Shown here: positions 2,399 to 14,770 of the stretch, piece by piece | Position numbering within the stretch: the stretch's first letter is position 1 | How the letters are laid out: each line of letters starts with the position of its first letter | Translations under genes and position numbers: made by a program | Notes under the pieces: generated by a model | The model's input: the letters and a program-made list of their open reading frames with translations, nothing else | The model's database searches: none | Told to the model about the DNA's origin: nothing | DNA from: an uncultured Nannocystaceae bacterium | Lineage (GTDB): Bacteria; Myxococcota_A; Polyangia; Nannocystales; Nannocystaceae | Reading direction: 5' to 3' | NCBI GenBank assembly: GCA_938084085.1 | Contig: CALKDV010000330.1 | Location: forward strand, 1 to 32,232 | Length of the DNA: 32,232 nt

Positions 2399-4270
2399 TC
2401 ACCGATATCCCGCGGCCTGAAGCTCGAACAGGCGCGCGTACCGGCCGCCTCGCGCCACCAGGTCCTTGTGACTCCCCCGCTCCACGACACGCCCGTGATC
2501 GAGCACCAAGATCGTGTCTGCGCTTCGTACCGTGGAGAAGCGGTGAGAAATCAAGATAGCCATCTTGTCGCGGGCGAGCCCTTGCACGTGCTCAAAGACC
2601 GTCGCCTCGGCCTCCGCGTCCATCGCGGCAGTCGGCTCGTCGAGCACGAGCAAGTCAGCGCTCGAGCGCATGAACGCCCGTGACAGCGCCACCTTCTGCC
2701 ACTGGCCTCCAGAGAGCTCGCGTCCGTCTTCGAACCACCGACCCAACTGGGTCTGATAACCGCGCTCAAACTCGTTGATGAACGGCGCGGCCATGCCTTG
2801 ATCCGCGGCCGTCTCCCAGCGCTCCTCATCGAGCAGGTGATCCACATCGCCCACTCCGATGTTCTCACCGACCAGCAATTGGTAGCGTGCAAAGTCTTGA
2901 AAAATCACCCCCACCCGCGAGCGCAACGCGGACGGATCCCACGTATCGAGAGGGGATCCGTCGAGCAAGATCCGGCCGCGAGACGGCTCGTACAGGCGGG
3001 TGAGCAGCTTGATCAAGGTGGTCTTGCCAGACCCGTTCTCACCCACCAGCGCCAGCGCCTCACCCGGGCGCAGGTGAAAGCTCACCTCCTCGAGCGCGGC
3101 GGACTCCGTGCCGGGGTAGGTGAAGCTTACGGACTCAAACCGCAGCCCGTCTCCCACGGATTCCCCCTCGACGAGCGCGCCCTCCTTTTGCTCAGAGCGC
3201 TGCTCGAGATACTCGTACAGATTCGACAGGTAGAGGTTGTCCTCATACATCCCGCCGATCGCGCTCAAGCTCGCCGCGACGGCCCCTTGACCCTGCTTGA
3301 ACAACATCAGGTACATGGTCATCTCGCCGAGTGAGATGGCGCCTGCGGCCGTCTCCAGCACGATCCACGCGTAGGCCCCATAAAATGCCCCGGTGCTGAT
3401 GAGCCCTACCGCGAAACCCCACGCCCCGCGCCGGAGGGTGAGGCGGCGGTCGTCCTTAAACACGGTCTCGAAGATGCCTCGATATCGACTCAACAACGTC
3501 TCCCCGAGTCCGAAGAGCTTCACCTCCTTGACGTAGTCCTCCCGCGCGAGGACCGTCTCCAGATACATCTGCTTGCGGGCCTCAGGCGAGCGCCAACGAA
3601 ACAATCGAAACGCCTCTCCCGAGAACTTCGTCTCCACAAAAAATGCGGGGATCCCCGCCACGGCGAGCAACACCACCGCGACCCCCGAGAACTGCCACAG
3701 CAAGATCCCATAGCTCACGAGGGAGATCGCGTTTTGCACGAGCCCGAAGGTCTTTGTCACCAGGCCCAAGGGGCGCACCGAGGCCTGACGGCGCGCGCGG
3801 GTGAGCTTGTCGTAAAACTGCGGGTCTTCAAAGTGTTGAAGCTCGAGCTCCAACGCCTTCTCCAAAATCATCACGTTCACGCGATGGCCGAGCAGCGCGC
3901 GAAGCAGACTCTGCGCCACGCTCACGCCGCGACCGATCCCGGCGATCCCGACGAAGATGAGGGCCTCCACGCCCACCCATTGCAACGTCACCGTCACCAG
4001 TTCCTCGCTGCCACCGCTCGCGCCCGCCGCCACCACCCCGTCCACGATCTTTTGACCGACCCACGCCGCGGCCGCGGGCAACAACCCCCCGACGAGCGTC
4101 AAGATAACAAAGAGGAGCGTGAGCGTCCGGCTCGTCTCCCAGACCAAACGCACGGCGGCCCGGGTGTAGCCGAAGACCTCGGTGAATCCTCGCAGCCCTC
4201 GCCCTTGGGGCTCCTCCCGATGATGCGCTACCATGCCGGTAGTGTGGACAAGGACGCCTCCGGGCTCCAC
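2399..4270 (-). CDS. ABC exporter, fused transmembrane domain plus ATPase (MsbA/type I exporter-like)
   Basis: 623-aa ORF with a hydrophobic N-terminal half containing about 6 TM segments. Walker A GENGSGKTT, signature LSGGQWQKVALSRAF, Walker B LLVLDEPTAAMD, H-loop ILISHR. The start is either GTG at 4270 or ATG at 4234 (MVAHHREE...); I cannot resolve which. Confidence 0.9.
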   Translation of the reverse strand: MEPGGVLVHTTGMVAHHREEPQGRGLRGFTEVFGYTRAAVRLVWETSRTLTLLFVILTLVGGLLPAAAAWVGQKIVDGVVAAGASGGSEELVTVTLQWVGVEALIFVGIAGIGRGVSVAQSLLRALLGHRVNVMILEKALELELQHFEDPQFYDKLTRARRQASVRPLGLVTKTFGLVQNAISLVSYGILLWQFSGVAVVLLAVAGIPAFFVETKFSGEAFRLFRWRSPEARKQMYLETVLAREDYVKEVKLFGLGETLLSRYRGIFETVFKDDRRLTLRRGAWGFAVGLISTGAFYGAYAWIVLETAAGAISLGEMTMYLMLFKQGQGAVAASLSAIGGMYEDNLYLSNLYEYLEQRSEQKEGALVEGESVGDGLRFESVSFTYPGTESAALEEVSFHLRPGEALALVGENGSGKTTLIKLLTRLYEPSRGRILLDGSPLDTWDPSALRSRVGVIFQDFARYQLLVGENIGVGDVDHLLDEERWETAADQGMAAPFINEFERGYQTQLGRWFEDGRELSGGQWQKVALSRAFMRSSADLLVLDEPTAAMDAEAEATVFEHVQGLARDKMAILISHRFSTVRSADTILVLDHGRVVERGSHKDLVARGGRYARLFELQAAGYR

Positions 4271-4280
4271 CCCTGACTCA

Positions 4281-4317
4281 AGAAAGTAAACGAGGGCGCA
4301 TCCCTCGGCACGCCCTC
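4281..4317 (-). terminator. Putative intrinsic terminator after the beta-helix lipoprotein gene
   Basis: GAGGGCG (4292-4298) pairs with CGCCCTC (4311-4317). On the minus-strand transcript the hairpin is followed by GUUUACUUUCUU (complement of 4281-4291). It lies between the lipoprotein stop (4344) and the ABC exporter start. Confidence 0.45.
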
Positions 4318-4343
4318 ATCGTTTCGGGCACAAGTCCCGCTCG

Positions 4344-5759
4344 TTACGGCGCGAAGTTAAGCCACGCCGCCTGCGTCCAGTCCTCCGCTGCGAGAGGATC
4401 GACCGCGCCGAGATAGGTGACTTGGTCGAACCCCGCGGGCAGCGCCGTCCCCGCGCCGTTGCCCACCGCCGAGCTGCCCGGGTCCGGCTGCACGTTGGGT
4501 GCGCCCCAGGTCGGGTCGAGCGAGAGCCCGGTGAAGTCTCCGGTGTCCGTGAGGTTGTTGTTGCCCAGCAGGCTCCCTAGATCACATCCCGACGGGGTCT
4601 TGTCGAAGACATCACCGATCGCGATGTCGAAGTCGATGGCGATATTTCCGGCCATCCACTCTGCGCAGGTCTCGTCATCTTCCACGATCAGCATGAGCGG
4701 AGTCATGCTGGTCGCGTCGTTGGCGTAGTTCCCCAAGATCGAATTCCAGATCGAGAAGTTCGTTTGCTCCTTGAGGAAGATGCCCGTGGACTTATCCCCG
4801 GTTCCCGAGCCCACCACAGTCGCGTTCGCGATGAGTGGGTTGGTCCGAGGAGTCGCCGCAAAGTCCCCCCCGTTGGAGACCTCAAAGCCGTTGTCTCCTG
4901 CGGGAGCGCTGTCTTGGTGAATCAACACGTACTGAATCTGCCCCGAGAACCCGAGGTCCATGTCGAGCGAGTCATCAGCCGCACCAGTCACCACGAGGTG
5001 ATCTGCGTCGAACGAGCCACCAAACATCTCAATGCCGTCGTCGGAGCCCATGTGCGACTGCACGTGGCTCACCGTGGTGTCGGTGCCGCAGCCATAAAAC
5101 GTGATGCCGTTGAGCTCGTTGCCCGCGGTCACCTCGAAGCCTGCGTACTCCACCCGCACAAACTCAAGGGAGCCGCAGTTGTGGGTGGGGACGTCGCCGC
5201 CATAGCTCGGGGCGCTGGAGGGGAAGCCCTCCGCGGTGCACGAGGTCCCACAGTTCGCCGGCGCCTCGCCGATGAGGACGAGTCCTCCCCAATCACCGCG
5301 AGCGACGGTCGCGGGGCTGGTCGCGAGCGTGTCTGCGGTGAACACGATGGGCGCATCCGCAGAACCCGATGCCTCCACGCGAGCGCTCTTCTCGATGACG
5401 AGCGCGCTGCCCCCTTGCCCTCGGATGGTGGTTCCTGGCTCGATCTCGAGGACGCCGTTTGTGACGGTGATGAAGTTCTCGAGCACGTAGACCTTGTCAC
5501 AGGTCCAGGAGGCGCCGCCTTCGATGTTTGCGTTCACCGCGACGATGTCGGCGGCGTCCGTGGTGAGCGGGTCCGCACACAGGTCGCCGTCTCCGTCCCC
5601 GTCGCCGTCGCCGTCTCCGTCGCCATCTCCGTCCCCGTCGCCGTCCCCAGAAGAGGAGGAGAGGTCGGTTGTGTTGCCTTCTGCGTCATCTGCACATCCG
5701 AGCGCGCCCAATATGAGCGGAGCGATCAAAAGTGCACTGAAGATATTTTTGGTGTTCAT
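4344..5759 (-). CDS. Secreted lipoprotein with a (Gly-Asp)11 tether and a predicted parallel beta-helix body; function unknown
   Basis: Track ORF 4344..5954. I place the start at the ATG at 5759-5757, preceded by GGAG 7 nt upstream. It gives MNTKNIFSALLIAPLILGALGC with a lipobox (LGALGC), then SSSSGDGDGDGDGDGDGDGDGDGDGD. The body carries motifs I associate with an uncharacterised beta-helix family: WTCDKVYVL, LEIEPGTTIRG, APIVFT, GDWGGLVLIG, NELNGITFYGCG, SDDGIEMFGGSFDADHLVV, DDSLDMDLGF, NGFEVSN and a C-terminal DWTQAAWLNFAP. The 65 codons upstream of Met66 look non-coding (no signal peptide, atypical composition). Confidence 0.8.
   Translation of the reverse strand: MNTKNIFSALLIAPLILGALGCADDAEGNTTDLSSSSGDGDGDGDGDGDGDGDGDGDGDLCADPLTTDAADIVAVNANIEGGASWTCDKVYVLENFITVTNGVLEIEPGTTIRGQGGSALVIEKSARVEASGSADAPIVFTADTLATSPATVARGDWGGLVLIGEAPANCGTSCTAEGFPSSAPSYGGDVPTHNCGSLEFVRVEYAGFEVTAGNELNGITFYGCGTDTTVSHVQSHMGSDDGIEMFGGSFDADHLVVTGAADDSLDMDLGFSGQIQYVLIHQDSAPAGDNGFEVSNGGDFAATPRTNPLIANATVVGSGTGDKSTGIFLKEQTNFSIWNSILGNYANDATSMTPLMLIVEDDETCAEWMAGNIAIDFDIAIGDVFDKTPSGCDLGSLLGNNNLTDTGDFTGLSLDPTWGAPNVQPDPGSSAVGNGAGTALPAGFDQVTYLGAVDPLAAEDWTQAAWLNFAP
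5583..5648 (-). repeat. Coding hexanucleotide tandem repeat, 11 x (GTCNCC on plus strand), encoding (Gly-Asp)11
   Basis: Read directly: gtcgcc gtctcc gtcccc gtcgcc gtcgcc gtctcc gtcgcc atctcc gtcccc gtcgcc gtcccc. It sits in frame inside the lipoprotein gene, just after the lipobox. Confidence 0.95.
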
Positions 5760-6001
5760 AGGATTCTCCGTCAAGCGTTTGTTCGTCGGCGTGTTCGCCG
5801 AACTCGTAGGTTCTCGCAGACAACTTTGACTTCTGTGTGCGGGTTCGGTGAACACTCGGTCACAAGAAATGATGTGAAGTGGAGACCAGCGGTGGGCAAC
5901 GTCCATGCAGACCACGGCGGTCTGCGTCCGAGCAGCATCCTCGATGCCATACATTCTGGGCCATTGGGAAGGACCGCGGAGCCTTCCGTCCTGCGCGGCC
6001 G

Positions 6002-9000
6002 CTAGAAGCTGTAACTAAGTCCCAAGCGGACGTCGACGCCCTTGCGGAAGTTGTTACGATCGATCTCTTGGACAACGTCCGGATTTGCGATGCCGTTCGC
6101 GATCTGGTTGGCCTTGATCTCCGAGACGGTTTCGTCCGTGAGCCGCTGTACGACCCCAAATTTGGTGTTGAGAATATTTCCGACCCGCAAGGTGACACGC
6201 AGCTCTTGGCTCGTCTCCGCCTCGAAGGAGTCGGTGGAGGAAGCCACCTGAAACAGGCGCTGGGACATGACCAGGTCCAACATGTGCTGGGGTGTCTCCC
6301 AGATGTTACCGAACTCCGAGAGGCGCCAGAGACGCTCGCCAAACGCGTTGTACAGCACGCGCGCACGTGTGCCCGAGGTGCTGTTGTCGTAGTCGATGAA
6401 GGCGTTCAAGATCCACGGTGACACCCCTGCCAGAGGACGCTTTTGAGAACCTGCGGCGCTATATTGAAGATAATGACGGCAGAGGCGGTCTTCCGGCGGG
6501 CACTCACCTTCGAAGTTTTCTCCGACCACGTAGGTGTTTCCATCCACGGCCGTGTAGTCCCGGACCGGCGTCACGCGCGAGAAAATATACGCGAAGTTGG
6601 CGCCGACCGAGATGTCCTCAAGCCACCGCAGTTTGGGTTTCATGAGGTCCTCGTCCCGGTCGCGCCCCAAGAAGCCGAGGTTCTTCTTAAACTCAGCTTC
6701 CCCGCCGATGTTGATGGCGCTCTGGCTGTTGACCCAGGACTGAAGCTCGCTGGAGGTACCAGAGGTGAGCACCGCCTCGATGGGCTTATCAAACTGCTTG
6801 AAGAAGGCAGACACCGCGACCACCTCGCCCCCGGAGGGGAACCACTCCCAGCGCAGATCTGCGTTCCACACCCGAGTCGACTCCAGCAGGTCAAAGCCCT
6901 CTGAAGTCACTCCTCCAAACGATTTTGTAAAGGAGAAGGGCGCGAGCTCGCGCATCTCAGGTCGCGCGATCGTCCGCGTCCCCCCGAGCCGAATATTCAT
7001 TTTGCTCGTGGGCGAGAAGATCAATGAGGCCGCCGGGAACACGTCACTGTCTGTGGTGTTAAACGTCTCTAGATCCTGATTTTCGCGGTCAAAGGGGTTG
7101 AACGGGCGCATCGCGATCTTTGAAAACTCGTACCGCACCCCTCCCGTAATCTTGAACCATCGGGTGATGGGTAGGTCCATCTGTCCGTAGCCCGCGAACA
7201 CCTGCTGACGGCCCTCATATCCGTCGGCGTCCCCGGTCTGTTCGACGAGATAGAAGGGTTCTTGACCGCCGACCGCGGCGCCTAATCCGCCTCCGATGGT
7301 GTCCGCGTTGAGAACGTTCCCCACGTAGTCTGGAACATTGGACACCCCGTTGGCTTGCTGGAACAAAAATCGACGATTGCTAAACTCTCGCTGCTTTCCC
7401 TCGACCCACGCGCCCATCTTCACAGAGGAGTCAAGCTGCAGCCACTGGCGAAAGGGAAACTCAAGGTTCATGACGCCGTTGCCAACGGCGTCGTCGAGGA
7501 CCCCCGCGTTGATCCGTGGCTTCGCCACGTCCACCGCCACCTCGTAGTTGCCCTCGCCAGACGTGTCCGTATAGAGCACCTCCCGGCGAGTGGGATCATC
7601 TTGCCGGGCTCGCGAGAAAGAACCCGAGTAGTCCAGCTTCAAGCCCCGCGCCTTCTCAAATTCGTGTGCCGCGCCCACCTGCGTAAAAAAGATGGAGCGC
7701 ATCACGTAGCGGTGGCGAGAGGTGAGCGCCGCTTCGGGGCCGATCGCCTTCGGCGAAAAGCCGCGCTGGTAGCGAACCTCATTGGCCGCGTCTCGCGAGT
7801 AGAACATGTTCGCGAAGACCTCGTGACCTCGCTCGCTCGTGTACTTGGCCAGGCCGATCCCTCCGAGCTGTACGCGACGAACGTAGCGTCGGTCACTCCC
7901 CTTGTCGGTTGAGCCCCAATCGGTCCCCGCCTTGAGCCCCGACTCATCCGCCACCGTGCTGCTCATTCCGGCGTCAGTGTTGGGGCAACCGCGGCAATCG
8001 ATGGCCGAGGCAGACACCCCCTCCACCGTCTTGAACTCGTCTTTGATGCCGCCCGAGAGCACCCAACCCACGCGATCCCCGTTGGCCAAGGTGTGACCAT
8101 TGCCGAGCGTGGTACTCAAGCGATACGTCGGCGGCGCCACGGACGACGCGCTCGGCGTCGCCGTATACAAGGCCTCACCGTACGCCTCTATTTCCTCCGG
8201 TGCGTACGCCGGCCCGGCCACGGGCGGCGATGAGGTGCCTGGAAAACCCGTGGGCAGGCCGCGAGAGATGTTGCCGAAGCCAACGCCGTCGCCCCGGAGG
8301 CGTCCATCACGAACGAAGTCGTCGAAGGTCGCTTGGGTGTTCGCCTCGAAAGACGCGGAGACGTCAAAGGTGAACTCATCAGGGATGTCACGGCTGCGCA
8401 GCTGCGTCGAGCCGCCCACAAAGTCCGCGGGCTGCTCCGGGGTAAATGACTTCACAATGTCGATAGACGACAACGCCCCTGAGGGAAAGATATCGAGCGG
8501 AACGGTCCGCACATCTGGATCAGGACTCGGAAGACGAGCCCCGTCAAACAGCGTATTTCCGTAACGGTGCTTGAGACCCCGGATGATGAGATATCGATTG
8601 TCCTCGAGCGTCGCCCCGACGATGAAGCGCGCGAGGGAGGCGCTCGATCCTCCGCCTGCCTTCTTCATCTCCTGCGAGGACATGACGTCCTTGGTCTCCA
8701 CCGCCTCCGCCCGCTCGGTGAGCACCACAGATTCGTTCCCTTTGGGCGCCTCCGCCTCGATGACGGTCTCGCTCACCATCCCTGCGAGGGGCACGAGCTC
8801 CACAGACTGGGTGCGAGATCCGTCCACCTCCACCTCAAGATCTGCGATCTCCTTGACCGAGAACGTCTCGTAGAAGAACTCCACGGTGTAGATCCCCTCC
8901 GGCAAACGCAACACGTACGCGCCGTCCCCGTCGGTCGTCACTTCATATGGAGAATTCAGCACCCGCACGTTCGCGCCCATGAGGGGATCACCTGTCCGCG

Positions 9001-9532
9001 CGTCTTTCACCACGCCTCGTAGCTCTCCGGACGCGCCCTTAACTTCGACCTGCTCGACTTGCTCTTCGAGTTCTGCGTTCGGGTCGTCGCTGGCATCTTC
9101 GATGAGGACTTGACCGTCCCAGTCGTCCTCTTCGTCTTCCTCCCCCCAATCTTCCTCCTCTTCCTCGTCTCCCCAGTCGTCCTCTTCGTCTTCCTGCGCC
9201 GGTTCGCTGACCTCGTCGAGGACCTCGTCGGTATCTTGTTCAGTCACGTCGGCCGGATCGTCGGGGGGAACTTCCTCGGTCGGTTCAATGCTCTCGTCGA
9301 CTTCGGACTCCGGCTCCTCCTCTGTGGGGATCGCGTCCGCCGCCGGCGGGTCTTCTGGAGACGGCCCGTCCTCTTCACTGGGAGTCGGCGCCTCACCCGC
9401 CGGCTCCCAAGCGCCGCCAAGCTCTGCCTCGCCGGACCGGGCCATCGCCGGCCTGTCGCAGGTGGCTGCGAGCACCAAGGCAATGGTCGTCGCGACGGGA
9501 AGAGAGGGGGAACGTCGGCGGAGAGTCTTCAT
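6002..9532 (-). CDS. TonB-dependent outer-membrane barrel with acidic N-terminal extension and CarboxypepD_reg-like domain (Oar/SusC-style architecture)
   Basis: 1176 aa starting at ATG 9532. Signal peptide MKTLRRRSPSLPVATTIALVLAATCDRPAMA. Residues about 33-166 are extremely acidic. A CarboxypepD_reg-like segment follows: GELRGVVKDARTGDPLMGANVRVLNSPYEVTTDGDGAYVLRLPEGIYTVEFFYETF. The plug reads NRYLIIRGLKHRYGNTLFDGARLPSPDPDVRTVPLDIFPSGALSSIDIVKSFTPEQPADFVGGSTQL. A long beta-rich region ends in VDVRLGLSYSF (terminal Phe, the outer-membrane barrel signature). Confidence 0.9.
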   Translation of the reverse strand: MKTLRRRSPSLPVATTIALVLAATCDRPAMARSGEAELGGAWEPAGEAPTPSEEDGPSPEDPPAADAIPTEEEPESEVDESIEPTEEVPPDDPADVTEQDTDEVLDEVSEPAQEDEEDDWGDEEEEEDWGEEDEEDDWDGQVLIEDASDDPNAELEEQVEQVEVKGASGELRGVVKDARTGDPLMGANVRVLNSPYEVTTDGDGAYVLRLPEGIYTVEFFYETFSVKEIADLEVEVDGSRTQSVELVPLAGMVSETVIEAEAPKGNESVVLTERAEAVETKDVMSSQEMKKAGGGSSASLARFIVGATLEDNRYLIIRGLKHRYGNTLFDGARLPSPDPDVRTVPLDIFPSGALSSIDIVKSFTPEQPADFVGGSTQLRSRDIPDEFTFDVSASFEANTQATFDDFVRDGRLRGDGVGFGNISRGLPTGFPGTSSPPVAGPAYAPEEIEAYGEALYTATPSASSVAPPTYRLSTTLGNGHTLANGDRVGWVLSGGIKDEFKTVEGVSASAIDCRGCPNTDAGMSSTVADESGLKAGTDWGSTDKGSDRRYVRRVQLGGIGLAKYTSERGHEVFANMFYSRDAANEVRYQRGFSPKAIGPEAALTSRHRYVMRSIFFTQVGAAHEFEKARGLKLDYSGSFSRARQDDPTRREVLYTDTSGEGNYEVAVDVAKPRINAGVLDDAVGNGVMNLEFPFRQWLQLDSSVKMGAWVEGKQREFSNRRFLFQQANGVSNVPDYVGNVLNADTIGGGLGAAVGGQEPFYLVEQTGDADGYEGRQQVFAGYGQMDLPITRWFKITGGVRYEFSKIAMRPFNPFDRENQDLETFNTTDSDVFPAASLIFSPTSKMNIRLGGTRTIARPEMRELAPFSFTKSFGGVTSEGFDLLESTRVWNADLRWEWFPSGGEVVAVSAFFKQFDKPIEAVLTSGTSSELQSWVNSQSAINIGGEAEFKKNLGFLGRDRDEDLMKPKLRWLEDISVGANFAYIFSRVTPVRDYTAVDGNTYVVGENFEGECPPEDRLCRHYLQYSAAGSQKRPLAGVSPWILNAFIDYDNSTSGTRARVLYNAFGERLWRLSEFGNIWETPQHMLDLVMSQRLFQVASSTDSFEAETSQELRVTLRVGNILNTKFGVVQRLTDETVSEIKANQIANGIANPDVVQEIDRNNFRKGVDVRLGLSYSF
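9113..9196 (-). repeat. Coding tandem repeat (54-nt period at DNA level, 9-aa period at protein level) encoding EDEEDDWG / DEEEEEDWG / EEDEEDDWD
   Basis: cccagtcgtcctcttcgtcttcct occurs at 9118-9141 and again at 9172-9195. In the protein, Trp residues 120, 129 and 138 are spaced exactly 9 aa apart in a poly-Asp/Glu context. Confidence 0.85.
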
Positions 9533-9557
9533 CGCGGGCCTTAAAGCGTGGTCGTGA

Positions 9558-9583
9558 TGAGGGCGTGAACGAGCGCGCCCTCA
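9558..9583 (-). promoter_or_regulatory. Stable intercistronic hairpin between exbD and the TonB-dependent barrel gene
   Basis: tGAGGGCG (9558-9565) pairs with CGCCCTCa (9576-9583) across a 10-nt loop. No U-tract follows on the sense (minus) strand, so it is more likely an RNA stability or attenuation element than a full terminator. The same GAGGGCG/CGCCCTC stem recurs at 4292-4317. Confidence 0.4.
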
Positions 9584-9593
9584 GGCAAAAGGA

Positions 9594-10055
9594 TCAGCGG
9601 TCCTTGTCTCCAAGTTTGACCGGCTCCGTGAGCATCACGACCGGTGCAGCCTTCGCGGCTCGCGCAGCGAGGATCGCTTCGAGTGTCCTCCGAAACTCCA
9701 CATCATCGTCCGCGTCGACATAGACGACTCGATCTTTCCGAGCGTTGAGGACACGCTCGAGCTTGTCGATGAGATCACCGCGCTCCTCTGGGGCGTACTT
9801 GTATTTGGCGTTGATCCACAGTTCCCCGCTCTCTCGCGCGATGAGCGTCAAGGTCTCATTTTGGAGATCTTGGATCATCGCTTGCGTCTGTTCATCGTCC
9901 GGCTTGGGAGGAAACCGCACGTACAAGCCCTTCGTAACGACCGGCGCGATTACCATAAAGATGATGAGCAACACCAACACCACGTCCACGAGCGGGGTCA
10001 CGTTCATCTCTGGGCGAACGCCCTTCTTCCCTCCACTGCCGAGATTCATGCCCAT
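9594..10055 (-). CDS. exbD: Biopolymer transport protein ExbD/TolR (second copy)
   Basis: 153 aa starting at ATG 10055. NVTPLVDVVLVLLIIFMVIAPV matches the ExbD/TolR single-TM signature. The start is 3 nt after the upstream exbD stop. Confidence 0.9.
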   Translation of the reverse strand: MGMNLGSGGKKGVRPEMNVTPLVDVVLVLLIIFMVIAPVVTKGLYVRFPPKPDDEQTQAMIQDLQNETLTLIARESGELWINAKYKYAPEERGDLIDKLERVLNARKDRVVYVDADDDVEFRRTLEAILAARAAKAAPVVMLTEPVKLGDKDR

Positions 10056-10058
10056 GGT

Positions 10059-10544
10059 TTAGTTCCCCTCCTCGGCCACACCGGCCTCTTCGCTCCACTC
10101 ATCTTGCTGCCCGCTCACCGCGAAGTTCACCGCGCCGAGCCCGCCATCTCGAAGGTCTCTGACCATGTCGCGAACGACCTTGTGCTTCACGCCGGCGTCG
10201 ACGCGCAGCAGCAGCGGGAGCTCCGGCGTCTCGTTCCATTTCTCCACTGCGGCGCCGACGATGACGTCGCGCGGAAGATCAGCGTCGACCAGCGTGAACA
10301 CGGGCGCGTCGTCCTCGAGAGAGATGGTCAGCGACACGGGCTCCTCGCCATCCGCGGCCGCATCATCCGCCGCGTCTGCGGGGATCAGCTCGATGGACTT
10401 CGCGTCCTGGACCGCTGGCAGCACGACCATAAAGATGATCAAGAGCACGAGCACCACGTCCACGAGCGGCGTGACGTTGATGTCTGGACGCACCCCGCTC
10501 TTTTTGCCAGTTTTGGCAAATGGATTTTTACCGAGTGTGGCCAC
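10059..10544 (-). CDS. exbD: Biopolymer transport protein ExbD/TolR (first copy)
   Basis: 161 aa starting at GTG 10544. INVTPLVDVVLVLLIIFMVVLPA. It overlaps the 3' end of exbB by 17 nt. Confidence 0.88.
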   Translation of the reverse strand: MATLGKNPFAKTGKKSGVRPDINVTPLVDVVLVLLIIFMVVLPAVQDAKSIELIPADAADDAAADGEEPVSLTISLEDDAPVFTLVDADLPRDVIVGAAVEKWNETPELPLLLRVDAGVKHKVVRDMVRDLRDGGLGAVNFAVSGQQDEWSEEAGVAEEGN

Positions 10545-11190
10545 CCTTGGTCTCCAAGTGATCGATGAGTTCGCTCGAGGCGTGCTGCAGTTGAAGCTCG
10601 ATAACGTCGAACTTTTGAGTGAGGAAGTTGAAGATCCACACAGCCCCGATTGCGATGACCAGGCCGAGCCCCGTCACAATCAGCGCCTCGGCGATGCCGG
10701 CGGACACCGTGTCAAAGCCACCTCCGCCAGATTCTGCCATCTGGGTGAAGACCGTGATGATTCCGATAACGGTCCCAAACAACCCAACGAACGGCGCAGT
10801 GGACCCCGTGGTCGCGAGGATGCCCGTCCCTCGTTTGAGCTGCGCGCTCAAGTCCTCGAGTCTGCGCGACAATTGACGGGTCGCCAGCTCAACGGGGCCG
10901 AGAATTTTGTCATCGATATTGTCTAGATAGCTCTGGAGTCCGAACCGGTACAGCTGGGCCAGGGGAGAGACCCCGTGGCGCTCCGTCAAAGACAAGACGG
11001 CCTCAAAGTCACCCTCCTGCACCAGCTCACTTGCAGAGCGAGCGAACTGCTCCGACGCGCGGTTTGATTTACGAAGCGCGATGAAACGCTCAACGCCGGC
11101 CACCAAGCTCCAAATCCCCATCCCGACCAAGGTGAAGACGACGAGGCGGGCCGCGAGGCCCATTGAACTCCAAATATGATGTAGATCCAT
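10528..11190 (-). CDS. exbB: MotA/TolQ/ExbB proton-channel protein
   Basis: 220 aa starting at ATG 11190, with three hydrophobic segments. GSTAPFVGLFGTVIGIITVF and IAEALIVTGLGLVIAIGAVWIFNFL match the ExbB/TolQ signature helices. Confidence 0.9.
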   Translation of the reverse strand: MDLHHIWSSMGLAARLVVFTLVGMGIWSLVAGVERFIALRKSNRASEQFARSASELVQEGDFEAVLSLTERHGVSPLAQLYRFGLQSYLDNIDDKILGPVELATRQLSRRLEDLSAQLKRGTGILATTGSTAPFVGLFGTVIGIITVFTQMAESGGGGFDTVSAGIAEALIVTGLGLVIAIGAVWIFNFLTQKFDVIELQLQHASSELIDHLETKGGHTR

Positions 11191-11211
11191 GAATTTGACT
11201 CTTTCCGATGA

Positions 11212-12021
11212 CTAGCGCTTCAACTTAAATGGAAAGCGCTCTCGCATAACGCAGGTGAATGCCTGCCCGTCCGGGTGACGGCAGGGCTCGGTGAACTTCC
11301 ACTTTGACAGGGCGCGCCCCACCTCTTTTTTCATGACCTCGTTGGCCTTCGCGATGTGGCTCTCCTTGGTCGCGTTGTTGGTCACTTTGACGAACTTGAG
11401 CTTGCGCAGACGCGCTTTTTGATCGATCGTCATCTTCACCACGACCAGACCCTCGATCCCACGCTTTTGCATCGCGGAGGGATACTTGGGCTGCGGATTT
11501 CCCGCGGCCTTCTTCGCGGGTTTATCCGCGCGGGTGAGCGTCGTCGGTTTCTTCGGATCCCGTTTGGGGGGCGCCTTTTTCTTTGGCGGCTCAGGCTTCT
11601 CTTCCTTCTTACCGATGTCTCCCGCGGGCTTCGCCGGTCCGGTGCCTCCACCCCCTCCACCCGCTTGGCCATCCGACGCGGCGTCCGACTCCGCGAGGTC
11701 TTGCTCGGACAGATCAGTGGGTGTCTCCAGCTTCGGCGCGGGCTTCTTTGGACCAGACGACCTTCGAGCATTGGGCGGAGGTGGCGCCGGTGGCTCCTCA
11801 GGTTCCTCCTCTTCGATCTCCTCGATCGGCTCTTCCTCCACCGGAGAGGGCGCAAGCTCAACCGCGACCACCTCCTCGTTTACCTCCGGAGGCTCGAACT
11901 CCACCTGTGAACCGGCGTAATAGACCGCTCCGTACAGCGCGAGTACCACCACGATGGCCGCGCCGCGATGACGGTCAAAAAATTGGTGCTTCGGCGCACC
12001 CGGGTCAAATCCTCCGAACAT
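11212..12021 (-). CDS. tonB: TonB-family energy transducer
   Basis: Track ORF 11212..12054 starts at TTG. I prefer the ATG at 12021 (MFGGFDPGAPKHQFFDRHRGAAIVVVLALYGAVYYAG, an N-terminal TM anchor). It has a Pro/Glu/Lys-rich spacer (EEEPEEPPAPPPP...KKEEKPEPPKKKAPPKRDPKKP). The TonB C-terminal-like domain reads PKYPSAMQKRGIEGLVVVKMTID.... Confidence 0.85.
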   Translation of the reverse strand: MFGGFDPGAPKHQFFDRHRGAAIVVVLALYGAVYYAGSQVEFEPPEVNEEVVAVELAPSPVEEEPIEEIEEEEPEEPPAPPPPNARRSSGPKKPAPKLETPTDLSEQDLAESDAASDGQAGGGGGGTGPAKPAGDIGKKEEKPEPPKKKAPPKRDPKKPTTLTRADKPAKKAAGNPQPKYPSAMQKRGIEGLVVVKMTIDQKARLRKLKFVKVTNNATKESHIAKANEVMKKEVGRALSKWKFTEPCRHPDGQAFTCVMRERFPFKLKR

Positions 12022-12189
12022 CCGAATGCGGACGTTGCAGCCGTTCGACGACAACCGCGTGTCTCGATCGTGTCATCCACGTGAAATATCGCGGGTGGAA
12101 CGGCGAAATGCAACGGAGCGATACCGAGTTGTCACACCTGGCGCACAGATGCCGCTAAACTCTCCTGAGTCTCGCAAAGCCCCACAGCT

Positions 12190-12804
12190 ATGCCCCTTAC
12201 CCGACCTATTCTCCTGCTGGATGTCATGGACACACTCGTCGAGGATCCTGCCTATCGCGTCGTCCCAGCCTTCTTTGGTGAGGATCTCACCACTCATTTT
12301 GCGCTGAAGGACAAGCGAGCATTCCACGCGTTCGAACGCGGCGAGATCGACGAAGCGCAGTTCCACGCCCACTACTACCTCGATGGCCGTTCCTGGGACC
12401 TCGAGGGCCTCAAACAGCGGCTATCAGAGGGCTACGCGTGGATTCCGGGGATGCGAAGCCTGGTGCAGCGCTTGGTCGAGACTGGCTGGGAGCTGCACGC
12501 CTTATCGAACTACTCCAGCTGGTATGATCTCGTGGATCTGCGTTGCGGCCTCGGCGACGCCGGCGTACGACGCAGCTTTGTGTCGTGTGACACTGGCGTA
12601 CGAAAGCCGTCGCCGCATGCATATCTGGGCCCGTGCGCCGCCATGTCCGCACCCCCCTCGCGGTTCCTGTTCGTCGACGATCGCGCGAAAAATGTCCACG
12701 GTGCGCGAGCGGTCGGCATGCCCGCCATTCACTTCACCAGCGCGGACAATCTCGCGTCCGCCCTCGCGCGCTACGACGACCCCACCGCCGACGGTCCCAC
12801 CTAG
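12190..12804 (+). CDS. HAD-superfamily hydrolase
   Basis: 204 aa starting at ATG. Motif I-like LLLDVMDTLV, motif III region TGVRKPSPHAYL, motif IV FVDDRAKNVHGARAVGMPAIHF. Confidence 0.8.
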   Translation: MPLTRPILLLDVMDTLVEDPAYRVVPAFFGEDLTTHFALKDKRAFHAFERGEIDEAQFHAHYYLDGRSWDLEGLKQRLSEGYAWIPGMRSLVQRLVETGWELHALSNYSSWYDLVDLRCGLGDAGVRRSFVSCDTGVRKPSPHAYLGPCAAMSAPPSRFLFVDDRAKNVHGARAVGMPAIHFTSADNLASALARYDDPTADGPT

Positions 12805-13880
12805 GGGGTCTGAACGTAGCGCTGCGTCAACCCGTGCGTCGCCACGCTCGCGACCGCGGGCAATCCCCAGGCGATGTTGCCGCGAAAGCCGACAAAGAAG
12901 CTCCCGCTCGTGGAGATTCGGATCTCGTCGGGGAGTTCGCTGCGCGAGAGCGCCGTGTTGATTTGGCCGCCGACGATCAGCGCACCCCAGCCGCCGACTC
13001 CGACGCCAACGTCACCAGTCAAGCCCAACGGTGAGCGCTGAGGCCCTCCCCCAAACTCGCCGCGGGTGCCGCGGAGCCAAAAGCTGATGCCGGAGGACAC
13101 CTCCAGCGTGGGGGACCAGGATCCTCGCTTGAACCAGTACCGCATCGCCACCCCCACGTTGCCAAACAACGATTCTTCTTCCCCTGCGATCACTCCGCCT
13201 TTGGGTCCGAGGGTGAGGCGAGTATACCGACGCTCGCCCACGACCTCGCTCACAACGGGAAGATTCAGCCACAGATCGTACTGGGCGCGCCCCGAATTCC
13301 ACTGGTTGAGTTCGTTGCGGCTCACGTCCCCTTGCCGGAAACGGCGCGCATAAGCGGAGGTTGCCTGGAGCTCCAGCGTCCACCCGCACGACGGGTCCGC
13401 CACCCAGCAGCGAAACGCGCGCTTGCCCTTGGCCATCTCGGGGCCGCTCGCGTCGCCGCGCTGAAGCTCAAAGCGCGCGCGGAGTTCGTCTTCGTCCCCA
13501 ACTCCGTAAAATGGGGGCCCTTGTTCGGGAGGTGTCATCGAGTAGCCGTCACGAAGATCTGGTCCCAGCGCTGCCTCCGGATCCTCTGCGGAGTCCGCCT
13601 CATCGGGCTCCGCCGCGTCGGGCGCCGCCGCATCGGGCGCCACAGGCTCCGCTGCCTCTTCTGCCGCTGCTACCGCGTCACTTGCGGCCGGCTCCGCCGC
13701 TGCTGCACCGCTCGTCTCAGGCTCCGCCGCTGCTGCATCGCTCGTCTCAAGCTCCGCTGCCGCGTCGTTTGCCGCCGGCGCTACGCCCTCGGCCCTGGCC
13801 ACGGAGGTCATCAATGGCACGCCCAACGCCGCCACCAATATGCGCGCTCCCATGACTCGTGAATACTTCAAACGGCTCAT
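12801..13880 (-). CDS. Secreted protein of unknown function, paralog A (Ala/Glu/Pro-rich repeats plus a beta-rich C-terminal domain)
   Basis: 359 aa starting at ATG 13880. Signal peptide MSRLKYSRVMGARILVAALGVPLMTSVARAEG. The low-complexity region AAAELETSDAAAAEPETSGAAAAEPAASD... is followed by a conserved domain shared with the upstream gene (FRCWVADPSCGW, GVGVGGWGALIVGG, FFVGFRG). Its ATG overlaps the upstream stop as ATGA (13877-13880). Confidence 0.75.
   Translation of the reverse strand: MSRLKYSRVMGARILVAALGVPLMTSVARAEGVAPAANDAAAELETSDAAAAEPETSGAAAAEPAASDAVAAAEEAAEPVAPDAAAPDAAEPDEADSAEDPEAALGPDLRDGYSMTPPEQGPPFYGVGDEDELRARFELQRGDASGPEMAKGKRAFRCWVADPSCGWTLELQATSAYARRFRQGDVSRNELNQWNSGRAQYDLWLNLPVVSEVVGERRYTRLTLGPKGGVIAGEEESLFGNVGVAMRYWFKRGSWSPTLEVSSGISFWLRGTRGEFGGGPQRSPLGLTGDVGVGVGGWGALIVGGQINTALSRSELPDEIRISTSGSFFVGFRGNIAWGLPAVASVATHGLTQRYVQTP
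13691..13767 (-). repeat. Coding 30-nt tandem repeat (about 2.5 copies) encoding ETS[GD]AAAAE[PL]
   Basis: gctccgccgctgctgcaccgctcgtctcag (13691-13720), gctccgccgctgctgcatcgctcgtctcaa (13721-13750), then the partial copy gctccgctgccgcgtcg. A smaller 15-nt duplication (PDAAA/PDAAE) lies at about 13611-13639. Confidence 0.85.
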
Positions 13881-14770
13881 CCTCCACCACCGCCGATCGC
13901 CACGCCCCCGAGCAACAGGCCGGAGATCACGAGCACCGCCACGGGCCCCGCGGCGATGGCGTGCCCCTTGAAACCGAAGACAATGCGCGTGTCTCCGTCG
14001 AGAAAGTCACCGTTAACGAAGACGCCGCCCCATCCTCCGAAGCCGGCCCCAAACTCCGCATTGAAGCCGGTATAGCGCTTGTCCGAGATGGCGTTGAAGA
14101 CGCTGCTGGCCACCACCCCGATCGTCGCGTCGAGATGAAAGCCGTTGCGCCGCGGTCCAAGCCACATCTGATTCACCACGCCGAACCGAATCGCCCGCGT
14201 GTCATCTCTCTCGATGAAGGGGGTGTCATTGCTGCCCGGCAGCACCGAGCCGGAGCCGAGCGACCAGCTCACCACGGGGCCCACCGCCCACGGGTGCCAG
14301 GTTTTTTTCGCGATTTTGATGGGGCGGAAGGTGATCCCGCCGCCGACGCGGAACTGGGTATAGGGTACATCGAAGGCCTCGTCGGTCTCGATGGCGTTGA
14401 TTCCCGCACCCACATCAACCCACGCCAACAGGGACATCGAGCAGGTCGCGTCTTCGACAAAACAAAAATAACCATTGCCCACGGACAACCGCGGGTGGGC
14501 GGGATACGGAGACGCGTACCCGACCTCGTCACGGGGCGCGACCATAAAGGTCGCCTCGTGATTCGGTGGAGACGACGCCTCCTCTTCAACGTTTGCATCC
14601 GCCGCCGGCGCCTCCGCGACATCCGCGTCGCGTGCGTCCATCATGGCCTGCGCGTCGACTGGCGCGAGCGACCACCAGGTACCCGCCATCGCCATGAACG
14701 AGCGAACGACCCGCGCGCGGAGCACCGTTCGCCGTGAAAGTCGAACGCATCTGGCCTTCCGCACACCCAC
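13877..14770 (-). CDS. Secreted or membrane protein of unknown function, paralog B
   Basis: 297 aa starting at GTG 14770. Arg-rich N-terminus with a weak hydrophobic segment, then an acidic Ala-rich stretch DADVAEAPAADANVEEEASSPP. The conserved domain carries YFCFVEDATCSM, GAGFGGWGGVFVNG and IVFGFKG. The C-terminus is hydrophobic and ends in GGGGG. The antisense ORF 13859..14737 is Arg-rich and looks like a shadow. Confidence 0.7.
   Translation of the reverse strand: MGVRKARCVRLSRRTVLRARVVRSFMAMAGTWWSLAPVDAQAMMDARDADVAEAPAADANVEEEASSPPNHEATFMVAPRDEVGYASPYPAHPRLSVGNGYFCFVEDATCSMSLLAWVDVGAGINAIETDEAFDVPYTQFRVGGGITFRPIKIAKKTWHPWAVGPVVSWSLGSGSVLPGSNDTPFIERDDTRAIRFGVVNQMWLGPRRNGFHLDATIGVVASSVFNAISDKRYTGFNAEFGAGFGGWGGVFVNGDFLDGDTRIVFGFKGHAIAAGPVAVLVISGLLLGGVAIGGGGG

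Follow-up and report, generated by a model that had tools for sequence, protein, structure and literature searches.

A Nannocystaceae gene cluster for a TonB-dependent transporter with its own Ton motor and an ElpS-family beta-helix lipoprotein, with a possible role in phosphorus scavenging

We analyzed a 32,232-nucleotide (nt) stretch of DNA from an uncultured Nannocystaceae bacterium (contig CALKDV010000330.1 of assembly GCA_938084085.1), hereafter called the window, for a cluster of six co-directional genes on its minus strand. In the order tonB-exbB-exbD-exbD-barrel-lipoprotein, these genes encode a Ton energizing complex, a TonB-dependent outer membrane barrel and a lipoprotein. An initial annotation, made from the sequence alone, had described this cluster with its junctions, a hairpin and a putative terminator. 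All were recovered by recomputation of the open reading frames (ORFs), by reading of the sequence and by a terminator scan, and the earlier positions were exact to the base. The features are listed below in the direction of transcription.

11212-12054, minus strand: tonB, with an N-terminal membrane anchor, a Pro/Glu/Lys-rich spacer and a C-terminal TonB domain (Pfam TonB_C, 26.7 bits against a cut-off of 24.6)
10528-11190, minus strand: exbB, proton-channel subunit (Pfam MotA_ExbB, 97.6 bits), 21 nt past tonB
10059-10544, minus strand: exbD copy 1 (Pfam ExbD, 55.8 bits), overlapping exbB by 17 nt
9594-10055, minus strand: exbD copy 2 (Pfam ExbD, 64.3 bits), 3 nt after copy 1
9558-9583, minus strand: hairpin TGAGGGCG-N10-CGCCCTCA, read from the sequence, in the 61-nt gap between exbD and the barrel gene
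6002-9532, minus strand: TonB-dependent barrel of 1176 amino acids (aa), with Pfam CarboxypepD_reg, Plug and barrel domains
4344-5759, minus strand: lipoprotein of 471 aa, assigned to the ElpS family, Pfam Beta_helix_4 (PF28492)
4289-4320, minus strand: terminator-like hairpin with a T-rich tail at the end of the cluster (terminator scan: 12 pairs followed by TTTACTTTCTTG)

From tonB to the lipoprotein gene, recomputation of the junctions gave a 21-nt gap, a 17-nt overlap and gaps of 3, 61 and 242 nt. The hairpin between exbD and the barrel gene lacks a T tract and was not called by the terminator scan. The MotA_ExbB, ExbD and TonB_C domains of an ExbB-ExbD-TonB energizer are encoded together, each above its Pfam gathering score; none of the Ton-motor proteins reached an NCBIfam equivalog cut-off. 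This six-gene arrangement is far beyond chance, as the same order recurs in about 30 Myxococcota loci. Its first gene, tonB, is the positional counterpart of MXAN_0276 of Myxococcus xanthus. Beyond the six genes, no neighbor is conserved around the cluster, in agreement with its earlier description as a self-contained module.

An association with an ABC exporter gene (2399-4270) had also been left open by the initial annotation. This gene lies on the same strand, 73 nt past the end of the lipoprotein gene, and its product matches Pfam ABC_tran above the gathering score and ABC_membrane weakly, below the cut-off. Cluster and exporter could form a single trans-envelope system, and the same arrangement is found in the closest relative (locus L002). 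However, the terminator-like hairpin lies between the two, and the exporter follows the cluster in L002 only, being absent downstream in all other loci. L002 also shares the next gene, which encodes an LD-carboxypeptidase, so the common order reflects local synteny. We regard a joint system as extremely unlikely.

The product of the barrel gene is a TonB-dependent transporter. It starts with a signal peptide, carries a Plug domain (PF07715; aa 278-368, DNA 8429-8701, 27.1 bits) and a TonB_dep_Rec_b-barrel domain (PF00593; aa 609-1075, 71.6 bits), both above the Pfam cut-offs, and has an aromatic C-terminus ending in ...SYSF. A CarboxypepD_reg domain (PF13620; aa 171-246, DNA 8795-9022, 49.8 bits, above the gathering score) stands N-terminal to the plug, as in the Oar subclass, and the CarboxypepD_reg-Plug-barrel layout proposed earlier is thus present. 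Between the signal peptide and CarboxypepD_reg lies a hyper-acidic stretch (aa 32-166, DNA 9035-9439) of repeated EEDDWG-like units, with 60 Asp/Glu and 2 Lys/Arg in 135 residues, which is probably disordered. The label "SusC-style" did not hold up: a SusC/RagA identity was rejected, as the model TIGR04056 gave 31 bits against a cut-off of 368.25, in a match confined to the N-terminal 150 residues. The best NCBIfam match, below its cut-off, was TIGR01782, which is also the best relative of the M. xanthus and Caulobacter partner barrels described below.

The lipoprotein start at 5759 corresponds to M66 of a longer ORF (4344-5954). This start yields the signal peptide MNTKNIFSALLIAPLILGALGC and a textbook-like lipobox, MNTKNIFSALLIAPLILGALG-C22 (LGALG-C22). 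The residues at +2 to +5 after C22 are acidic (ADDAE), the (GD)11 tether follows at aa 38-59 (DNA 5583-5648), and the C-terminal region has the motif YxGAxxxxxxxWxxxxW. Pfam and NCBIfam scans with this protein returned no family, the Pfam copy scanned being one without the PF28492 model. PF28492 is carried by 120/120 of the best homologs (E 4e-120 to 2e-86), and the accession is given as Beta_helix_4 in a neighborhood look-up; through the annotation of these homologs, the lipoprotein is assigned to the PF28492/ElpS family. A literature search for PF28492 found no reports, and one for a beta-helix lipoprotein acting with a TonB-dependent transporter found nothing relevant.

An AlphaFold2 model of the lipoprotein, built with 116 homologs (mean pLDDT 85.9, pTM 0.85), shows a right-handed parallel beta-helix at about aa 70-345, while the first ~60 residues, which comprise the signal peptide and the tether, are disordered. 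A SusD-like partner, with the all-helical, TPR-like SusD/RagB fold, is excluded by this model and by the absence of a SusD Pfam match. The model, a Foldseek search, the PF28492 homologs and the sequence itself all confirmed the earlier description of a non-SusD beta-helix lipoprotein on a (GD)11 tether. A profile search of 1.84 billion representatives of 50% identity clusters retrieved 14,769 Beta_helix_4 representatives at E ≤1e-3 and 4,019 at E ≤1e-30. In many family members the whole beta-helix domain is repeated in tandem, in two to five copies, giving giant proteins such as P0334 (2035 aa) and P0339 (2403 aa), and a 4910-aa member (P0360) has 14 matched stretches.

When 12 family members of at least five phyla are aligned, the invariant residues number only a few dozen. 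Nine of them are acidic and lie on four successive rungs of the helix (E215, D240, D241, E244, D262, D263, D266, D268, and E293); they belong to the motifs NELNG, DDGxExFGG, and DDSxDxDxG plus an invariant Glu. W157-G-G and Y186-G-G are likewise invariant, and His193, Cys195, and Cys224 are conserved within Myxococcota only. No basic residue is invariant in this alignment, and no conserved one suited to the role of a catalytic base was found. The acidic ladder may form a multi-cation site, which could bind a polyanion via bridging cations.

The beta-helix fold also brings glycan capture and degradation into consideration. The lipoprotein could be a surface lyase or hydrolase for an acidic polymer, e.g., polyuronate, and the barrel would import the resulting oligosaccharides, making the cluster a minimal polysaccharide-utilization locus. 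The Foldseek search against the PDB returned beta-helix proteins only, and these sole structural neighbors are of carbohydrate-active kinds (tailspikes, the pectate lyases Pel9A and PL3, PL6 lyases, and the epimerase AlgG). A relaxed Pfam scan of 27 family members gave Beta_helix matches in 4, all weak, and the best NCBIfam relative of the barrel, TIGR01782, is a Xanthomonas/Caulobacter receptor type that includes sugar importers. However, all the Foldseek matches were weak (E >0.001, query TM-score ≤0.43), and sequence and profile searches of the PDB with the lipoprotein found nothing meaningful. In none of the phyla does the barrel-lipoprotein pair have a conserved glycoside hydrolase, lyase, sugar transporter or regulator nearby. 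The lack of an invariant Lys/Arg, which beta-elimination would need as a base, argues against a lyase of that type. Such a glycan role therefore appears unlikely to us.

Conservation of the pair was assessed in a homolog scan with one genome per species, in which 558 relatives were confirmed and 80 loci kept; barrels were sought by iterated searches with the window proteins. A TonB-dependent barrel gene lies directly beside the beta-helix gene and on the same strand in 58 loci, and 5 more loci are cut by a contig end. The barrel gene is also adjacent in L029 and L052 and divergent in L078, for a total of ~66 of ~73 informative loci in at least eight phyla. The pair was found in Myxococcota, Alpha- and Gammaproteobacteria, Bacteroidota, Verrucomicrobiota, Latescibacterota, Fidelibacterota, KSB1, and Binatia. 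Across Myxococcota (Nannocystaceae, Myxococcus, Sorangium, other Polyangia, and Sandaracinaceae), the full tonB-exbB-exbD-exbD-barrel-lipoprotein order is kept. In Sphingomonadales, Caulobacter, and most Bacteroidota, the lipoprotein gene comes first, followed by the barrel gene, and there are no Ton genes. The initial annotation had asked whether this lipoprotein family is recurrently encoded beside such barrels with a dedicated tonB-exbBDD set; it recurs beside TonB-dependent barrels in many phyla, and the dedicated set accompanies it throughout Myxococcota. CarboxypepD_reg is found on the partner barrels of Bacteroidota, Latescibacterota, Verrucomicrobiota, Fidelibacterota, KSB1, and Myxococcota and not on the proteobacterial ones; the pairing is thus independent of that domain. 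Across phyla, the pair has no further conserved gene family around it.

Homologs without a nearby barrel gene are mainly gammaproteobacterial (Methylophaga, Oceanococcus, and Chromatiales; L020, L028, L030, L032, and L033), and no alternative partner is common to these loci. The copy of Methylophaga thiooxydans (L020) lies downstream of the TRAP genes dctQ and dctM; a TRAP transporter was considered as an alternative partner and rejected, as the genes beside the Methylophaga copy are not recurrent. Of note, a protein of ~330 aa without a Pfam or NCBIfam match is encoded beside the beta-helix gene in two Bacteroidales loci without an adjacent barrel and in Latescibacterota loci (L060 8868-9914, L062 8836-9861, L070 5687-6655, and also L072 and L077). 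Some Nannocystaceae have a second copy of the lipoprotein gene adjoining the first (L013 11312-12856, minus strand), and the double copy of Nannocystaceae bacterium ST9 (P0073/P0117) has the adjacent locus tags ACNOYE_14840 and ACNOYE_14845.

Sorting signals of the homologs were also compared. A strict pattern for a lipobox followed by a tether matched 44/84 family ORFs. The partners of Myxococcota, Alphaproteobacteria, and Bacteroidota have a lipobox, acidic residues, and then a low-complexity tether (GD, TD-rich, PT repeats, or poly-Gly). In Bacteroidota, what follows the Cys (GDDD, KKDD, and DKEDDED) resembles the surface lipoprotein export signal of that phylum. In Gracilimonas and Latescibacterota, a Por_Secre_tail of the type IX secretion system (T9SS) stands at the C-terminus in place of the lipobox. 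Lipoprotein export and T9SS are two different sorting routes, and both, like the protease experiment on ElpS described next, point to a partner located at the cell surface. By analogy with the T9SS tails of the homologs and the proteinase K result for ElpS, the lipoprotein of the window is likely surface-exposed as well.

The family is not wholly uncharacterized, as it contains ElpS (CC0170) of Caulobacter. The Caulobacter locus in our set (L083) encodes a prepilin peptidase, a Beta_helix_4 lipoprotein (488 aa), a TonB-dependent receptor (881 aa), and gspC-D-E-F-G-H-I-J-K. The published order in C. crescentus is cc0170-cc0171-gspC..gspN, with the prepilin peptidase gene gspO downstream of gspN and not upstream of cc0170 (PMC2996285). 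Since the order in L083 corresponds to the cc0170-cc0171-gspC..N core, ElpS is placed in the Beta_helix_4 family. CC0170 (ElpS) is a lipoprotein of ~50 kDa whose lipobox reads LAGC (le Blastier et al. 2010, PMC2996285), and the family member of C. vibrioides matches it in both lipobox (LAGC) and size (~50 kDa). The window lipoprotein shares 40% identity with this ElpS-type protein over a 230-residue core, and the window barrel shares 24% identity with the CC0171-type barrel of Caulobacter (E 2e-42). The lipoprotein had been described as being of unknown function. That stands insofar as a substrate is known for no family member, but the family does include the partly studied ElpS.

ElpS is sensitive to proteinase K on intact cells and is therefore surface-exposed; it is induced by phosphate starvation, and both ElpS and CC0171 were found in stalk extracts from low-phosphate medium (PMC2996285). 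Its arrival at the surface does not depend on the type II secretion system (T2SS), and it is later released into the medium by a T2SS-dependent protease (PMC2996285). Overproduction of ElpS raises extracellular alkaline phosphatase activity, and that homologs of elpS and of cc0171 occur together had already been noticed by the same authors (PMC2996285). Later work placed the T2SS adjoining elpS and several TonB-dependent receptors in the PhoB regulon, and a review mentions an ElpS homolog in the Xanthomonas xcs cluster.

Three M. xanthus clusters combine a complete Ton system with a barrel: those of MXAN_0272, MXAN_0821, and MXAN_1450 (Oar). L021, the M. xanthus locus that we recovered via the lipoprotein, shares its six-gene order with the window, and its proteins map to entries of strain DK1622; locus tags of other strains place them at about gene 261-270. 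Because of the gene order, these locus tags, and the presence of only three such clusters in the genome, we infer that L021 corresponds to MXAN_0271-0276 and its lipoprotein to MXAN_0271, and not to the Oar cluster. MXAN_0273-0276 form the Ton complex, MXAN_0272 being the barrel and MXAN_0276 the TonB (Gomez-Santos et al. 2019, PMC6434023). The window lipoprotein is 38% identical to MXAN_0271. The window barrel is 28% identical to the MXAN_0272-type barrel from end to end (E 3e-96), in an alignment that spans the low-complexity stretch before CarboxypepD_reg. The length of this barrel varies from 1005 to 1143 aa between Myxococcus strains. MXAN_0271-0276 are absent from the supplements of PMC9548883.

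This correspondence bears on the direction of transport. Following a proposal made for Oar and PopC, the initial annotation had considered that the barrel might act in protein export. In such a role it would secrete a protein or release the lipoprotein itself. The layout is indeed the same as that of the Oar cluster (tonB-exbB-exbD-exbD, a CarboxypepD_reg barrel, and a lipoprotein), and ElpS is released into the medium. However, the counterpart of the window barrel is MXAN_0272, whose deletion left PopC secretion and development unaffected and which did not solubilize PopC. The idea borrowed from Oar is thus unsupported for this cluster, and import is favored over PopC-type export. The lipoprotein encoded downstream of Oar, MXAN_1451, is MlpA, which is not a beta-helix protein. 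An assignment of the window barrel as an Oar (MXAN_1450) ortholog was rejected on the same grounds, the cluster with the same lipoprotein family being MXAN_0271-0276; it should be noted that the two are set apart by synteny and not by sequence. In Caulobacter, ElpS does not need the T2SS to reach the surface, it is released in a protease-dependent manner, and deletion of cc0171 did not suppress ElpS production (PMC2996285). Export is accordingly very unlikely in our view.

Metal acquisition was weighed as a further explanation, in which the acidic ladder would bind the transported metal itself (Ca, Fe, a lanthanide, or another) and hand it on to the barrel. Nine invariant Asp/Glu on consecutive rungs would suit such a role, and the M. 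xanthus literature assumes iron uptake for MXAN_0273-0276. This iron assignment is a guess, however, and MXAN_0272 is one of two receptors that were not up-regulated together with the iron-uptake genes during predation. The neighborhood has no conserved Fur-type or metal-homeostasis genes, and Caulobacter ElpS responds to phosphate. We therefore hold it to be improbable that the metal is the cargo.

A link to phosphate is also suggested by some neighboring genes and upstream repeats. In three Latescibacterota metagenome-assembled genomes, pstS, pstC, pstA, and pstB lie divergently beside the barrel gene, and in L082, pstA, pstB, PHO4, PhoU_div, and a pstS remnant lie beside the pair. An apparent PstS-Beta_helix_4 fusion in the latter locus (P0222; L082 4338-6251, public call of 637 aa) was rejected as a mis-called start with an in-frame pstS remnant upstream; the true start of this ElpS homolog is near residue 143, where it has its own signal peptide and lipobox.

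Caulobacter elpS orthologs are preceded by three to five 7-bp CTGTCAT-like boxes in an 11-bp phase (for example, CTGTCGT-CGGA-CGGTCGG-CGGA-CCGTCAT-CGAC-CGGTGGC-CGCA-CCGTCAC), with a -10-like hexamer ~10 nt further on. The Methylophaga homolog is preceded by AAGTCAC-AAAA-CTGTCAT (L020 9505-9560), which as a whole matches the Escherichia coli Pho-box consensus well and in its second half-site exactly. In the barrel-lipoprotein gaps of 12 Nannocystaceae loci (L003-L013 and L015; e.g., L003 9643-9703), a promoter-like element of ~60 nt with 11-bp-phased boxes, GTGAC...(C/T)xGTCC(T/A)-N4-xCGTCAC-N10/11-CATAAC, is conserved before the lipoprotein gene; three of these 12 loci were not used in building the profile. 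The gap in Myxococcaceae is only 20-45 nt long and has no such element. Just upstream of tonB, GTGAC-N6-GTGAC repeats are strongly concentrated in ~15 Myxococcota loci, with ~20/89 occurrences falling in ~0.5% of the sequence. Two comparable sites were found in the window.

12131-12148, minus strand: candidate 7-4-7 direct-repeat operator, Pho-box-like, CTGTGCG-CCAG-GTGTGAC, in the 135-nt intergenic region between tonB and a HAD phosphatase-type gene
5826-5865, minus strand: four half-sites in an 11-bp phase, TTGTGAC-CGAG-TGTTCAC-CGAA-CCCGCAC-ACAG-AAGTCAA, read from the sequence, in the 242-nt gap

With a weight matrix made only from the promoter boxes of the relatives' lipoprotein genes, 12131-12148 is the top site of the whole window on both strands. 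The array at 5826-5865 is followed after 11 nt by a -10-like hexamer, AGAACC, and the whole element (5809-5865) is a weak candidate for an internal promoter of the lipoprotein gene; GTGACCGAGTGTTCAC was picked up 104 nt before the lipoprotein ATG, within the same gap. These upstream repeats fit an OmpR/PhoB-type regulator, and the Pho-box-like ones hint at phosphate induction. The gene that shares the 135-nt region with tonB (12190-12804, plus strand) is divergent from it and encodes a cytoplasmic HAD-IA phosphatase-type protein; it is not conserved at this tonB-adjacent position in relatives.

Taken together, our favored interpretation is that the region is the Nannocystaceae-type version of MXAN_0271-0276, in which a Ton motor, a TonB-dependent transporter, and an ElpS-family lipoprotein would serve surface capture and import for phosphorus scavenging; we give this a probability of roughly 50%. 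The lipoprotein would carry its lipid on C22 and be exported to the outer membrane's external face, where the flexible (GD)11 tether would hold it away from the membrane. Its groove of nine invariant Asp/Glu, probably loaded with divalent cations, would capture a polyanionic nutrient and may also cleave it. The nutrient would then pass from the lipoprotein to the adjacent barrel, which it is presumed to contact, and the dedicated Ton complex, driven by the proton-motive force, would pull the plug and let it in. The physiological role would most likely be phosphorus scavenging under phosphate limitation, as for Caulobacter ElpS/CC0171.

Several observations weigh against this interpretation. 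A substrate is known for none of the Beta_helix_4 proteins, and the missing conserved basic residue among the 12 aligned sequences leaves catalysis unsupported. Refolded or immunoprecipitated ElpS had no phosphatase activity, deletion of elpS left the extracellular activity unchanged, and cc0171 was reported to be constitutive while elpS is inducible (PMC2996285). The lack of MXAN_0272 up-regulation with the iron genes in predation also counts here. Phosphate-transport neighbors occur in 4/84 loci only. The nhmmer promoter profile missed the 242-nt gap of the window in the full search and gave 2.7 bits in a targeted one. The tonB-proximal repeats are mostly GTGAC on the coding strand, i.e., the reverse complement of the Pho half-site, and with this orientation the regulator could be any OmpR-family protein.

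Where the window is concerned, the analysis mainly clarifies matters: its cluster is an ordinary representative of a module that is already known, though unsolved in mechanism, and is neither an Oar-type exporter nor a new system. Three observations can now be joined, namely the MXAN_0271-0276 cluster, Caulobacter ElpS/CC0171, and the T9SS-sorted partners in other phyla. Together they give a testable hypothesis, in which the acidic ladder would capture a phosphorus-containing polyanion at the surface and TonB-driven import would follow. Few transporter-partner modules that lack an assigned substrate are as widely distributed as the barrel-beta-helix pair, and M. xanthus, C. crescentus, and Plesiocystis pacifica are tractable organisms for such tests. 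Very tentatively, and at odds well below even, ElpS-type beta-helix proteins might constitute a third large class of surface partners for TonB-dependent transporters, capturing polyanionic phosphorus compounds by a cation-loaded acidic groove. If so, polyphosphate, extracellular DNA, teichoic acids, and phytate would be candidate ligands, and the module would represent a very widespread, unrecognized route of phosphorus scavenging (~14,800 clusters at 50% identity in at least eight phyla), with a dedicated Ton motor in myxobacteria.

Upstream of the cluster, two further minus-strand genes (12801-13880 and 13877-14770) overlap by 4 nt; their products look secreted and are rich in Ala/Glu/Pro in the N-terminal region and in Gly at the C-terminus. 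Neither product has a family match, relatedness between the two is not detectable, and the genes are not conserved beside the cluster elsewhere.

Compared with known systems, the cluster resembles Bacteroidota SusC/SusD (RagA/RagB) in that a TonB-dependent barrel with CarboxypepD_reg is encoded beside a surface lipoprotein, which suggests surface capture followed by import. It differs in that the window barrel falls short of the SusC/RagA model, the partner is an all-beta right-handed helix and not a helical SusD, and there are no glycan-degrading genes. TbpB/TbpA and BtuG/BtuB offer a similar likeness, as the TonB-dependent barrel would receive a ligand captured by a tethered, lipid-anchored surface protein from a neighboring gene; the folds of TbpB and BtuG are unrelated to that of the window lipoprotein, and no sequence similarity with it was found. 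The Oar cluster has the same succession of tonB-exbB-exbD-exbD, CarboxypepD_reg barrel, and lipoprotein gene, but it is a separate, paralogous cluster, and its downstream lipoprotein is MlpA instead of a beta-helix protein. MXAN_0271-0276 share with the window the six-gene order, the domain layout, and a low-complexity stretch before CarboxypepD_reg. This stretch consists of Pro/Gln/Thr-rich repeats in MXAN_0272, whereas it is hyper-acidic in the window barrel, and the barrel-lipoprotein gap is 21 nt in M. xanthus versus 242 nt, possibly with its own promoter, in the window. In the case of ElpS/CC0171, the lipoprotein gene comes first, the Caulobacter barrel has neither CarboxypepD_reg nor the acidic extension, no dedicated tonB-exbBDD is present, and the pair lies beside a T2SS cluster that is absent from the window. 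The two systems nevertheless have in common the Beta_helix_4 family with its acidic ladder, the lipobox, the flexible tether, and an adjoining TonB-dependent barrel with TIGR01782 as its best match.

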